A DNA stretch of 60,753 nt, counting the filler, from Bdellovibrionales bacterium RIFOXYD12_FULL_39_22 (GTDB lineage Bacteria > Bdellovibrionota > Bacteriovoracia > Bacteriovoracales > Bacteriovoracaceae), in the NCBI GenBank assembly GCA_001770205.1. It is 7 parts of 7 records of this genome, joined end to end, with 100 filler letters (N's around TTAATTAATTAA, not from the genome) between each part and the next. Parts side by side here need not be neighbours in the genome. Positions count along the whole stretch, not along the records: positions 26,560 to 31,737 come from MEQL01000036.1; positions 31,838 to 42,623 come from MEQL01000039.1; 5 more parts are not named here. One strand, written 5' to 3'. Made by a program: the position numbers. Below are positions 30,001 through 33,000 of this stretch, one piece after another (position 1 is the first letter of the stretch; each line of letters opens with the position of its first letter).

Positions 30001-33000
30001 AAACAAAATATTGAAAACCTCCGTCATTTTTCTCTGCTATGTGCTCTGTATGAACCAACTCAGCGACAAGCTCAATAATTAAATCGTCAGAAATATGGTC
30101 TGAGTGTTTATCGACGTGCGGATCAATTACAATTTCTTCAATCTCTCTTTTGTTGATAATGATCGCATTAATTTTATAAACTCTTCTTTCCATCAAGGTA
30201 GATTATAGACGAAGTAGACAAATTTGTCAACTTCGTTTTCGGCGGTTACAACTAATGAATCTTACGCTAAAACGCGAATTTTTTTGAGCAAGATTCTTTC
30301 TATCCATTCTCCGTTAGCTTGGTTGTGTTCGAATCTCATTTTTCTCCGCCACAGGTGGTAAGATTCCAAGATGTTATACCTGCACAATTTTTTTACAGAG
30401 CATGTAATTGTGAACATGAAAATTTTTTTTCAGCCATTTGGCCTTTATTTGCATGCTACACTCATTAACGTAGACGGTTTATGAGTGTGCTTCGAATATC
30501 AATTAATTGATATTGTCCCAGAACTGATGTGCGAGTCCTAACTAATCCCACAGAAACTTGCTATATAAGCGAACGTTTTCAAGGGCACAGACCTTCCCTG
30601 AACTTTTAATCAAGCTCTCTTACAATTTTAAAGTGTTAAACCAACTTATGCAGAGATCTTTGTCACCGCTTCAATCTTTTCTTTGGTGTAGTTCTCAACT
30701 ACCATCTCGTTGGTAAAAGCGATTAAAACCTTCAAAAAGCCGGGAATACCCTCCCTTTCAAATAGATCGGCAGTCTCATTGATTAGCTCGTCAAAAGAAA
30801 ATGAAAGTCCTGATAGACAGGCGGTGATATTTAAAGCAATATTTTTACTGATCATGGGCCCTCCTTGGCGCAATTTATATTTTTAGTCGAATCTAAATTT
30901 AACCATACGGTCCATGGTTTATCAAAAAAGTGTCGATTTATTTGACAGCAAAAATTACTTTCCTATAAGAATTTCAAAAGGCTATTTTCGATTTAAAATT
31001 TCGATTACCATCTAGATAGCGAATAACCGAGCCCAGCACTCAGGTGATGAATAAGCACATCAGTTCTGGGACAATATCCAATATCAATTAATTTCGATAG
31101 GAGAATTTATGAGAATTTTACCAGTTTTATCCTTGTTAATAATGTGTACATCGTTGCCGATCTTTGCGGCGACAAATTACTCTGTCGGTGGTAGCGGATC
31201 GAAGGGAACTTTTATTAATATTGATGGGAGAAATTTTTGCTCACACAGCAAAACTAACTTAGGATATAGTTATGTTTTAACCGATCGCTATATCGCTGGG
31301 CTTATAATCAGAAATTTGGAAACGGGGGAGGCGACAACTTACAAAGATCAAGGATTTGTTCTTAGCGGAAAGTATGAAGATTCTAGGCTTTTTGAAAAAC
31401 TTGAAACACTTACAGAAAACGATATGCCACGGTATGTATTATTGGGAAAATATCGAAAATATGCAAAGAATAATGGAACCTATTTTTCACATGACTACGA
31501 GGATGAGTCTGCAGAAGAGACAACAATGACCGACAAGGGATTTTACCTCGAAATTTCATGGCAAGCCGACAACACCAATATTACATGTATCAAGCACTAG
31601 CGCAAGTTTACTAAACTCATCTCGAAAAACACAGACAACTATGCAAAATATTACGCAAAACCAGCCACCTAAATATTAACCAAAACCTGCCAATAAAACA
31701 TCAAATGTAAGATCCTCAATATTAATCTAATGTTTCTNNNNNNNNNNNNNNNNNNNNNNNNNNNNNNNNNNNNNNNNNNNNTTAATTAATTAANNNNNNN
31801 NNNNNNNNNNNNNNNNNNNNNNNNNNNNNNNNNNNNNCGCAATAAACTCAGTGGCCAAGTCAACGTTAGAAAGTTCAATAGATTTAGAAAGAATCTCTCC
31901 TCGTCCGGCCTCATGAGGTTTACCCATCGCGGCCTGTCCTGACTTAGAACTTTCTTTGAAAAGATTTTTTCCAACTTTAAATAACCCTTCATTATTTTCA
32001 AATTTAGCAACTGCAATTTGCGCCAAATCCCGACTTTCGCCATTATTATAAGCGGCCGTCAAAACACCTTTGTCGTTAAATGATAAACTAGTTAAGGTAG
32101 CGGCAGTTGCTCCATCTTGCGTATGACGAGATACGGCAGATTCGGAACCATATTGAGTGGCGGCATCAATTCCAGATCCACCTTCCGTAAACGATTGGCC
32201 ATAATTAAACAGAACCTTCTGTCCGGGGGCCGCACCTTTATTGAAGTTGAAATCATTCATCACATCAACTTCTTCTTGTAAAATACCCTTATCGTTAAAA
32301 ATTAATTTACCGGCGGCCATTTCATAGTATTTGCCCTCTTCGCCGCCAGCAGCATCTTTTCCATCAATCACTGCATGATATTCCCATGTATTATTTTCTG
32401 CTTTGTTGTAATACATGGTGATAAGGCGAGGTGTGCCAATGTTGTCGTAAATAGAAAGGGTGGTGCTATAACTAGAGGTTTTCTCTGGATTGGTAATATC
32501 AAAAACCTTCACATCCTCTCGAGAATCTAAATTCATATTTATATTTACATTCTCTGTTGCTTTAGCAGCAATCGTGGTCTGGCCCAACTTAATGGGAGCA
32601 ACCTTATTGGTAATAGTTCCATTATCTCCCACTTGAAATCCTCTGACTACATATCCATCAGCGTTAATCAACACTCCATCCTTATCAAAATGAAAGGATC
32701 CATCTCGGGTGTAACCATAACCAAAAGGAGCATCTAATTGGAAAAAGCCATTTCCACTAATTGCAAGATCAGTAATATTTTCTGTTCTAGCAATATTTCC
32801 TTGAGTGAACATGGGTTTAATGTGCGCTAGTTTAGTACCAGCTCCAAATTGGTCACCTCCATCAATACCTTTAAGTGAAGTAGCTAGCACATCTTGAAAT
32901 TCTGCTCTTGATGATTTGAATCCGGCAGTACTTGAGTTAGCGATGTTATCACCAACTACCGCGAGTCCCCCGCCTGCCGCACTAAGGCCTGAAATACCTA

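Follow-up and report, generated by a model that had tools for sequence, protein, structure and literature searches.

Insertion sequences with outward promoters include IS10 with its pOUT, ISAba1 and ISEcp1, and the Correia (CREE) elements of Neisseria are miniature inverted-repeat units that form hairpins and are co-transcribed with their neighbors. A review cited in PMC9208149 counts 40 insertion sequences whose outward promoter is complete and 28 that have an outward -35 box. "Mobile" or reused prokaryotic promoters have also been the subject of a descriptive survey that spans many mechanisms (Nijveen et al., 2012; PMC3575422). Among the Mutator-like DDE transposases, the ISH6 family (p-MULT 2) is characterized by an 8-bp target duplication and a reported preference for the AT-rich target AANATNTT (Guerillot et al., 2014; PMC3942029), and is described as almost entirely archaeal (PMC3942029; PMC9208149). 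TnGBS, ISLre2 and ISKra4 elements insert in one orientation, 15-17 bp upstream of the -35 box of sigma-A promoters, and asymmetry of their ends has been proposed to set this orientation (PMC3942029).

Here we describe a conserved motif in a window (the whole stretch of DNA that was analyzed, 60,753 nt) of a Bacteriovoracaceae genome. The genome-wide survey's note had put it forward as a candidate cis-regulatory leader RNA defining a regulon of secreted proteins. We find that it is the outward-reading left end of an insertion sequence of the ISH6 family (Mutator-like DDE), and the features on which this rests are collected in Table 1.

Table 1. Coordinates of the two motif copies in the window and of the features around them
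Feature	Position	Strand	Basis
Decayed, internally deleted ISH6-family insertion sequence, 570 bp	30509-31078		Inverted-repeat pair, transposase stub, homology to full elements of other genera
Left terminal inverted repeat (IRL), read outward	31055-31078	+	Terminus at 31078, where homology between copies ends
Right terminal inverted repeat (IRR)	30509-30532	+	Inverted-repeat pairing
Target-site duplication AATTAATT, left copy	30501-30508		Sequence reading; 8 bp as in L087 and L108
Target-site duplication AATTAATT, right copy	31086-31093		7-nt repeat 31079-31085 lies between terminus and duplication
Tandem repeat CAATATC of the element's last 7 nt	31079-31085	+	Sequence reading
Transposase remnant, 69 codons and stop	30646-30855	-	N-terminal 56 aa homologous; start context common to intact copies
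Candidate transposase promoter (TTGATA, 18 nt, TAAATT)	30896-30925	-	Consensus scan; region conserved in G050 and G148 copies
Candidate outward promoter 1 (TTGACA, 16 nt, TATAAG)	30942-30969	+	Alignment and upstream comparison
Candidate outward -10 box 2 (TACCAT)	31006-31011	+	TAnnAT conserved at this column across genera
Terminal hairpin	31032-31070	+	5' arm 31032-31040; 3' arm 31062-31070, within IRL
Motif as first reported	31016-31085	+	Covariance model and alignment
Downstream ORF of this copy, 163 aa	31109-31600	+	Signal-peptide-like N-terminus, no Pfam family
Second copy: solo left end, variant subfamily	26760-26836	+	TG-extended -10-like box 26760-26768; terminus 26836
Downstream ORF of second copy, 137 aa	26872-27285	+	Signal-peptide-like; ATG 35 nt from terminus

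Identity of the motif: left end of an insertion sequence of the ISH6 family

A second covariance model, built from the 13 copies listed for the genome, recovers exactly those 13 (E 2e-16 to 3.8e-10). The second copy in the window, with its motif interval at 26774-26843, belongs to a variant subtype that is also present in G057 (L045). That other genera hold copies is likewise borne out, but at E<=0.001 over 151 family genomes and 69 genera the covariance model places the motif in 9 genomes and 9 genera, the source genome included, where 12 of the 151 genomes had been claimed; outside the source genome these are 18 places in 8 genomes. The motif has no match in Rfam at E<=10, as the note had said. 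Over 26560-31740, eight weak Rfam matches (E<=10) all fall outside it.

The extent first given, about 65-70 nt, does not hold. In most copies the conserved unit spans about 150 nt, with one pair sharing more than 390 nt, and copy-to-copy homology ends sharply at ...GGGACAATATC, position 31078 of the window; the last 7 nt of the earlier interval are a tandem repeat of this terminus and lie outside the conserved unit. The copy at C39:311817 has a similar double repeat of its terminus. The copies are indeed non-coding, as indels of +1, +2 and +3 nt between them disrupt any frame, and a coding reading with a GTG or ATG frame leaving the end was ruled out by these same differences.

The motif sits at the right-hand (IRL) end of the 570-bp element. 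The IRL is 93% complementary over 29 nt to 30504-30532 and matches the perfect 21-bp terminal inverted repeats of an intact 1634-bp element on contig C51 of genome G148, where the 3' end of the motif is the terminus; further intact copies have repeats of 23-25 bp. The transposase stub is 73% identical (tblastn) to residues 1-56 of the 462-aa G148 transposase, and on contig C54 of the source genome the same internal sequence precedes an IRR beside a C-terminal transposase fragment. Overall, intact elements occur in other Bacteriovoracaceae genera and in metagenomes, measure 1629-1647 bp with terminal inverted repeats of 21-25 bp, and have 8-bp target duplications and a 462-aa transposase gene divergent from the motif. 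Their left end comprises the terminal inverted repeat, a subterminal hairpin and the region up to the transposase gene, and in the full-length copies the motif is not found outside the inverted repeats. The G148 transposase scores 360.9 bits against the ISH6 model NF041731 of NCBIfam (cut-off 240, E 7.5e-108), the best scores of the NCBIfam ISLre2 and ISKra4 models stay far under their cut-offs, and no Pfam model matches it.

A single-protein query recovered only 4 close relatives in genome contigs, and an alignment query recovered 18 loci in metagenome contigs; the assemblies of G148 and G050 break at edges of the repeat. Perfect 8-bp target duplications are present in L087 (AAACCTCC) and L108 (CCGATTTA). 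Three of the six elements bounded at both ends, with the window copy counted among the six, have no clean duplication (L084, L094, L107), and that of L109 is approximate only. The distant relatives L120-L122 (31-32% identity) share no common terminus, and L122, the one with clear repeats, has no adjoining signal-peptide gene. Short, non-autonomous and with both terminal repeats and a target duplication, the 570-bp element fits the description of a MITE; the other copies have no second repeat nearby. The spread of the motif over 9-11 genera tracks the insertion sequence.

Oriented insertion beside Shine-Dalgarno sites

The copies sit directly 5' of unrelated genes with signal peptides, as had been proposed. 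Twelve downstream ORFs compared with one another gave a best blastp E of 0.17; in Pfam, 10 of 11 have no family and the sole match (HEAT_2) lies just above its cut-off. Nine of the 11 pass a crude rule for signal-peptide-like N-termini, and the remaining two are signal-peptide-like by eye. For the window copy, 30 nt separate the terminus from the ATG of the downstream ORF, or 23 nt if the 7-nt repeat is left out of the count. This ORF has homologs in 3 of 151 family genomes, source included, none of them usable as proof of an empty site. Two of the 13 copies in the genome have no nearby ORF. No short conserved element is common to the 3' side of the 11 downstream genes, and the idea of a cassette was rejected on this ground. 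A repeat of about 95 nt follows two of the downstream genes and also flanks element ends elsewhere.

We extended this comparison to 41 ends, 39 with a recognizable terminus, including elements whose transposases are 55% (L087) and 37% (L089) identical. An ORF preceded by a Shine-Dalgarno (SD) site lies within 130 nt of the terminus at 33 of the 39 ends, and about 5 of the 39 have no ORF nearby. By the crude rule, 28 of the 33 ORFs are signal-peptide-like, against 23.2% of 2027 genome ORFs scored in the same way, and in 16 of these 28 the start codon is at most 20 nt from the terminus. Among the flanks listed, counted by eye, insertion was 0-9 nt upstream of the SD site or overlapping it in 20 of 29. 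Whether live or dead, the copies adjoin the SD site of a signal-peptide gene that reads in their own direction. The duplicated octamer of L087 coincides with the SD site, and in L108 the duplication overlaps it; the three clean duplications comprise one that is AT-rich and palindromic (AATTAATT) and two that overlap GGAG (in gene sense GGAGGTTT and TAAATCGG).

As a pattern, then, elements of this clade insert with a fixed orientation, either overlapping the SD site of mostly signal-peptide genes or a few bases ahead of it. Since perfect target duplications overlap the SD site in two intact copies, the position reflects an oriented choice of target, and what had been read as the sign of a regulon of secreted proteins is an insertion preference. 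A search of 31 relatives for an empty site found the flank of L087 nowhere outside its own genome. Three elements of other genera have a "native" upstream element (GGTT..AAAACCATTA..) next to them, which was rejected as a general target because the source genome has only chance-level matches.

Terminal hairpin, candidate outward promoters and the fate of left ends

Within the left end, an outer helix of 9 bp encloses an A-rich apical region with a short inner helix. The hairpin ends 8 nt short of the terminus, the inner part of the terminal repeat pairing with a subterminal segment. The covariation reported earlier is upheld: 89.8% of 371 cells are paired against 24-55% in slid controls, seven pairs show double changes, and none of 500 shuffles reaches this. 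The outer helix (243 cells) has 169 Watson-Crick, 48 G-U-type and 2 A-C-type pairs, and its wobble pairs are compatible with the downstream gene's strand alone. The outward strand folds more stably than its complement in 29 of 35 distinct ends (mean -11.9 versus -8.8 kcal/mol), and a hairpin is predicted in every divergent clade folded. Single-sequence z-scores are mostly weak, at -0.2 to -2.0 in the clade of the window copy (two source-genome copies and one from G148) and -3.2 for L087. In two copies on contig C38, 4 of 4 changes in the terminal repeat are compensated, and the loop is the best conserved part across genera. Covariation of the inverted repeat with its partner could date from when the elements were still active, with a function in transposition instead of an mRNA, and the excess of T opposite G could partly reflect a C-to-T mutation bias on an unconstrained arm that faces the constrained terminal repeat.

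A covarying hairpin 5' of ORFs and without an Rfam match is what a free-standing host cis-regulatory RNA, riboswitch-like or protein-binding and unrelated to mobile DNA, would present. This reading is contradicted by the contiguity of the motif with a transposase gene inside inverted repeats and target duplications. Moreover, the structure is one hairpin that has neither a junction nor a pocket, the + strand of 30480-31130 shows no terminator-like site, no terminator is conserved among the copies, and the sequence between the terminus and the SD site is unique to each copy and provides no SD-sequestering partner. We consider a free-standing RNA very improbable.

The same is true of an alternative-sigma (flagellar sigma-28-type) promoter or a DNA operator inside the 70-nt core, which is hardly credible given the sequences. 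Its attraction is CTCAAGT, a heptamer that some copies have and that also stands, exactly or with one difference, 14 nt upstream of CCGATA, CCGAAG or similar before about 5 of 8 flagellin-family genes of the source genome (by eye; boxes CTCAAGT, 14 nt, CCGAWA). However, 14 nt past the heptamer the motif has nnAGTT and never CCGA, so that the second box is absent from all 13 copies, and the heptamer itself varies within and between genomes (CTCAGGT, CTCGGGT, CTTATGT, CTCTTCT) and lacks conservation across genera. Nor would a protein-bound duplex be expected to show compensatory and wobble changes. Inspection by eye for sigma-54 and ECF boxes showed no conserved second box.

With regard to sigma-70, a consensus scan called no promoter on the outward strand of 30480-31130. 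It missed candidate promoter 1, whose second hexamer ends in G; across copies the last position of this -10 box is G, A or T. Candidate 2 has no recognizable -35 box, but its TAnnAT is conserved across genera, is TG-extended in at least five copies that lack the upstream module, and is degenerate in two copies without a downstream ORF. In one copy a run of 11 C (in the sense of the unit; G on the + strand of the contig) lies 7 nt upstream of this box. As a native promoter would have no space here, both promoter and 5' UTR most likely come from the element end, and the copies are most likely part of the 5' UTRs of the downstream genes. Sequencing runs that match 30900-31650 number 11, all of them DNA metagenome contigs and none RNA.

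The elements of the source genome are decayed. Its transposase is present as fragments only (56-154 aa, on C36, C5, C28 and C54; tblastn), and no autonomous copy with an intact transposase was found in the assembly, which is 94.6% complete and whose unassembled repeats could hold one. There are 12-13 left ends to 3 right-end-type repeats, about 4 to 1, and in five genomes without transposase the only terminal-repeat matches (at most 1 mismatch) are four left ends. The 5' limits of about eight relics cluster at the TTGACA-like box, the interval 30942-30969 being the 5' limit of most. Solo left ends persist in genomes without a transposase match, such as G068 (99% complete, 3 contigs), which has a single diverged copy ahead of a signal-peptide gene. 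In the only pair comparable within the source genome, the core is 83% and the dead transposase stub 81% identical, and we estimate that 24 invariant columns of 91 among the 13 copies approximate neutral decay from a recent burst.

This uniform divergence of core and dead transposase agrees with inert debris, that is, decaying ends that have no role in expression, are positioned by insertion site choice and carry a hairpin that serves transposition, for example by making the ends unequal for oriented insertion or as a structure in single-stranded DNA. In its favor are also that live elements of all clades have the hairpin, built from the terminal repeat itself, that unequal ends have been proposed to determine insertion orientation in related families (PMC3942029), and that the scan calls no outward promoter. 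Yet in 16 of 28 cases the start codon follows the terminus by 8-20 nt, which leaves no space for another promoter; such genes would be silent and ought to decay, whereas their reading frames, SD sites and signal peptides are intact. The bias of retention toward left ends and the clustering of relic limits at a promoter-like box also speak against debris, and wobble pairs on one strand fit a single-stranded (RNA) structure and are meaningless for a protein on duplex DNA, a strand-specific hairpin in single-stranded DNA being the other structure that would fit. We regard inert debris as an unlikely account.

At the other extreme, the leader could have been domesticated, with a trans-acting factor binding the hairpin or its A-rich loop together with the nearby GGA/SD site, and co-regulating about 11 secreted proteins; this would be the note's regulon, but of transposon origin. 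CsrA is one candidate, encoded in the source genome beside flagellar genes. The maintenance of solo left ends in genomes without transposase, G068 included, their excess over right ends, the helix kept in relics (with the compensated changes in the C38 copies), the conserved loop and the presence of CsrA all speak for such a step. Conversely, relic conservation is compatible with recent neutral decay, and the compensations may have arisen before the elements died. The helix takes up half of the GGA in GGGAC, a search for Hfq in the 94.6% complete source genome gave nothing, and insertion preference accounts for the gene set without co-regulation. Domestication would extend our preferred explanation rather than exclude it, and we hold it to be doubtful.

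Our preferred explanation, which we consider probable as a whole, combines an ISH6-family left end, oriented insertion close to the SD site, and a promoter and hairpin leader supplied by the element. Insertion at or just before the SD site severs a gene from its own promoter. One or two putative outward promoters 75-135 nt inside the terminus would most likely drive it instead, yielding a hybrid mRNA whose 5' UTR is formed by the conserved 70 nt. Speculatively, the hairpin could be a self-contained module that keeps the terminal sequence off the downstream ribosome-binding site, and it may also stabilize the message. The roughly fourfold excess of left over right ends would be expected if the captured genes now depend on them. 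More tentatively, the clade might be a plug-in expression cassette, homing in one orientation to canonical GGAG...ATGAAA starts of mostly secreted proteins and replacing their promoters by its own outward promoter and insulated hairpin leader, so that, once the transposase had decayed, a set of secreted-protein genes assembled by a transposon would share a single control sequence in these predatory bacteria. In a bolder version, an outward RNA that spans the end, hairpin scaffold plus flank, would act for the element in target choice or transposition control.

Comparison with known systems

What began as a candidate for a riboswitch-like regulon turns into a mobile-element story of bacterial members of a family described as almost entirely archaeal, distinguished by one-orientation insertion almost on SD sites and by a strand-specific, outward-reading terminal hairpin. 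If the end is an active promoter and leader, a transposon has, as a natural case, placed dozens of fast-evolving and mutually unrelated secreted proteins of a predatory family under the same expression module. There is also a practical warning, in that transposon ends can yield covariation and recurrence before unrelated genes. Like the leaders and riboswitches of Rfam, the motif has a putative 5' UTR position and a covarying hairpin; unlike them, it has no Rfam match and no expression platform and is bounded by a transposon.

The resemblance to Correia (CREE) elements lies in short, non-autonomous, transposon-derived units 5' of genes that bring promoter boxes and RNA hairpins; the window copy is an internally deleted element of 570 bp with both repeats. 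In contrast, most of the present copies are one-ended relics, and the hairpin lies within one end instead of arising from two terminal repeats. As in insertion sequences with outward promoters, an end with promoter-like boxes reading outward is found directly 5' of a co-oriented gene. In the present clade this arrangement is regular (28 of 39 ends) and not just a selected event that happens now and then, the promoter is a predicted one, and the outward transcript would bear a conserved structured leader. Near-identical upstream regions before unrelated genes, within and between genomes, are also what Nijveen et al. (2012; PMC3575422) describe in their survey of reused promoters; in the present case the vehicle is identified, as are the limits of the element and the targets it prefers.

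The elements agree with the ISH6 family in the NCBIfam match, a single ORF in about 1.6 kb, terminal repeats of 21-25 bp and the 8-bp duplication, and the window target AATTAATT is AT-rich, as is the family preference AANATNTT. They differ from ISH6 as described in belonging to Bacteriovoracaceae, in their oriented, SD-abutting insertion, in two perfect duplications (GGAGGTTT, TAAATCGG) that are not the AT-rich motif, and in a left end with about 215 nt of conserved non-coding sequence and an outward-strand hairpin. Neither this clade nor targeting close to SD sites turned up in the literature searched on ISH6 and on Bacteriovoracaceae insertion sequences, the latter screened by title.

With TnGBS, ISLre2 and ISKra4 the present elements share the transposase superfamily and oriented insertion at the 5' ends of genes, not inside them. 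Those elements land upstream of the promoter, which stays intact with the IRR adjoining it, whereas the present ones land downstream of the necessary promoter site, with the IRL adjoining the ribosome-binding site, so that the gene would have to be driven from the element. If true, this would extend the promoter-proximal targeting of related Mutator-like elements to translation-start regions.

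The motif as one end of an insertion sequence

The genome-wide survey's note had described a conserved motif ahead of unrelated secreted-protein genes and read it as a candidate cis-regulatory leader RNA. The window consists of several contigs with stretches of N at the joins, and the motif falls in contig C36. The observation itself was borne out. A covariance model made from the 13 listed copies (threshold E<=0.001) matched those 13 places in the genome and no others, and an Rfam search returned nothing at the motif position. The ORFs that follow have signal-peptide-like starts and are mutually unrelated (best blastp E 0.17, 12 ORFs compared), and 10 of 11 lack a Pfam family. 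At the same threshold the model also gave 18 matches in 8 further family genomes, so that its spread, this genome included, is 9/151 family genomes and 9/69 genera. The 3' end had been placed correctly, but the unit is longer than reported: aligned with their flanks, 10 of the 13 copies share an additional 85-90 nt upstream, and two share more than 390 nt.

Similarity between copies ends within a few bases of ...GGGACAATATC, at window position 31078. The last 24-29 nt of the unit recur in inverted orientation 522 nt to the left (30504-30532 and 31055-31083, 93% complementary), and the start context of the short ORF between these arms heads an ORF of 450-473 aa in other genera. A complete element in another genome (G148:C51) measures 1634 bp with perfect 21-bp terminal inverted repeats, and its 462-aa ORF begins 215 nt in from the left terminus and reads away from it. 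The protein has no match in Pfam; among the NCBIfam models, it reaches 360.9 bits on ISH6 transposase (cut-off 240) and stays far under the cut-off on ISLre2 and ISKra4. Further intact or near-intact copies in other genera and metagenome contigs are 1629-1647 bp long with repeats of 23-25 bp, and two of them, at loci L087 (AAACCTCC) and L108 (CCGATTTA), have perfect 8-bp target duplications. The motif is thus the end of an ISH6-family insertion sequence, and window 30509-31078 is an internally deleted derivative of such an element. These boundaries contradict the reading as a free-standing riboswitch-like leader, as does the absence of any expression platform.

The terminus of the C39 copy is trailed by tandem partial self-repeats (C39:311880-311896; GGACAATATC plus CAATATC); in the window CAATATC follows once. 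Slippage or repeated transposase action could account for both. A separate repeat, some 95 nt long, borders element ends on C13 (51070 onward) and C54 (19490 onward). It recurs 3' of two genes that stand behind leader units, those on C28 and C5, and has a partial copy in the window at about 30250-30300.

Coordinates of features in the window and on other contigs
Feature	Position	Strand	Remarks
Contig C36	26560 to about 31737
Motif, first copy	31016-31085
Motif, second copy	26774-26843
Candidate promoter A	30942-30969		TTGACA-like box, 16-17 nt, TATAAG/TGTAAG/TATAAT
Candidate promoter B	31006-11		TAnnAT box 8-12 nt upstream of ATTAACCG block
Outer helix, 9 pairs	31032-31040; 31062-31070		5' arm; 3' arm (inner part of terminal repeat)
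ORF between inverted arms	30646-30855	minus	69 codons
AATTAATT	30501-08; 31086-93		flanks window copy
CAATATC	31079-85		7-nt tandem repeat of element terminus
Overlapping small ORFs	29592-30196	minus	100 and 101 aa
G/C run, 11-mer	C38:68464-68474		7 nt upstream of -10-like box B of C38 unit
G/C run, 10-mer	C44:46886-46895		directly before ATG of C44 gene
Native upstream block	L083/L074 (G148:C51); L084 (G059:C3); L087 (G097:C10)		right flank; left flank; right flank
CTCAAGT-type box upstream of flagellin-family genes	C61:91081; C61:89848; C9:37777; C27:40320; C61:88725

Oriented insertion ahead of secreted-protein genes

We pooled 41 left ends, the ends that bear the motif: this genome gave 13, the model search in the family another 17, and 11 were anchored on transposase matches in genomes and metagenomes. 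The terminus is recognisable in 39, and 33 have an ORF within 130 nt that is preceded by a Shine-Dalgarno (SD) sequence and co-oriented with the outward direction. A crude signal-peptide rule is passed by 28 of these 33 ORFs, against a baseline of 23.2% of the 2027 SD-preceded ORFs in this genome; several of those that fail resemble signal peptides or lipoproteins by eye. The start codon lies within 20 nt of the terminus in 16/28 and within 35 nt in 23/28. This placement persists where transposase identity to the reference falls to only 55% (L087) and 37% (L089). At L087 the duplicated octamer, in gene sense GGAGGTTT, is the SD site itself, with the ATG 9 nt past the terminus, and the L108 duplication overlaps the GG of GGAG. 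Live elements therefore insert at SD sites in that orientation; the SD-proximal placement is not solely a residue of selection on old copies, and the position before secreted-protein genes belongs to the element.

A sequence-level target preference could explain the bias towards secreted proteins. Most flanks of left ends have a GGAG...ATGAAA-type start, and among the ORFs in this genome with GGAG, 5-9 nt and ATGAAA, 100/159 (62.9%) pass the signal-peptide rule. Just 5' of the SD site, three element-adjacent signal-peptide genes in three genera have in common a native block, GGTT..AAAACCATTA..AATGAGC, which was not found in the genome under study.

Terminal hairpin and candidate promoters

The end of the element can form a hairpin with an A-rich loop, closed off by a short inner helix. 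Its cells are paired in 89.8% (31 distinct rows), compared with 24-55% for slid partners, and 7 of the 12 pairs show double changes. Counted over 27 distinct cores, cells of the outer helix are Watson-Crick in 169 cases, of G-U type in 48 and of A-C type in 2, so that about 90% pair when the outward strand is read and about 71% when the transposase-sense strand is; because the 3' arm is under constraint as a transposase site, drift from C to T in the opposite arm would on its own yield wobble-type cells. In the one informative pair of copies, moreover, the core (83%) is conserved no better than dead coding sequence (81%). In 29/35 distinct ends, all divergent clades included, folding is more favourable for the last 50 nt than for their reverse complement (mean -11.9 versus -8.8 kcal/mol), a test that overstates the difference since copies are related. 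The asymmetry is greatest in intact elements. The living element thus conserves this hairpin, on the outward strand. It may act in the hybrid mRNA, by insulating the ribosome-binding site downstream, by stabilising the message or by binding a factor, or it may instead serve transposition, through end asymmetry or a single-stranded DNA form.

The weak 13th copy (C38:67785-67854) starts 7 nt past the stop codon of the gene that stands behind the strong copy at C38:68377, and no ORF follows it. Its outer helix differs, yet is fully compensated (CCAGG/CCTGG).

With 8-20 nt between terminus and ATG, a promoter cannot fit there, so transcription of the gene would have to start within the element or further upstream. 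Homology of about 8 independent relics begins at candidate promoter A, which is weak at the final base of its -10 box; a consensus scan makes no call there. The candidate B box is kept across genera, is preceded by TG in at least five copies without module A, and is degenerate in both copies of this genome that lack a downstream ORF; it has no convincing -35 box. From either candidate, the 70-nt motif would be transcribed as a 5' UTR. At C25:5120-5185 the promoter-like module occurs a second time, inverted and back to back with the C25 copy, so that two modules diverge there. Of the 15 G/C homopolymer runs of >=9 nt in this genome, two lie inside leader units and hint at possible phase-variable expression by a slipped-strand mechanism.

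Left ends are preferentially kept: this genome has 12-13 against 3 right-end-type repeats and only transposase fragments (on C36, C5, C28 and C54), and in five genomes that have no transposase, near-perfect matches to the terminal repeat number four, all of them left ends. Such retention is predicted if captured genes depend on the element end. That the ends are inert debris with no role in expression is unlikely, and would leave the downstream genes without a promoter. Domestication by the host as a regulatory leader, which would extend the element-end reading rather than replace it, is similarly doubtful; CsrA is encoded in this genome, and Hfq was not found there.

The CsrA gene (C39:83981-84136) sits some 1 kb downstream of a weak match to the flagellin family (hook-associated-like). 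Upstream of flagellin-family genes we noted by eye CTCAAGT or a one-off variant, 14 nt, then CCGATA, CCGAAG or similar, probably the flagellar sigma-factor promoter of the organism. As a sigma-28 promoter the motif was rejected: the second box fails and the first is not conserved. Elsewhere in the window, the overlapping small ORFs, the downstream one resembling a helix-turn-helix protein by eye only, may be toxin-antitoxin-like. Minus-strand translations of 31790-34425 resemble flagellar hook and hook-cap proteins, again only by eye, and the first of these ORFs runs into a masked N stretch.

Relation to known elements

ISH6 is placed in the Mutator-like DDE superfamily, with an AT-rich 8-bp target that is duplicated (Guerillot et al., 2014; PMC3942029), and is described as almost wholly archaeal (PMC3942029; PMC9208149). 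Relative to the literature we found, three things are new: a clade of ISH6-like elements in bacteria (Bacteriovoracaceae), insertion in one orientation at the SD sites of mostly secreted-protein genes, and a terminal hairpin on the outward strand. Oriented insertion near promoters is known from relatives of ISH6: according to PMC3942029, TnGBS, ISLre2 and ISKra4 keep to one orientation when they insert, 15-17 bp upstream of the -35 box of promoters.
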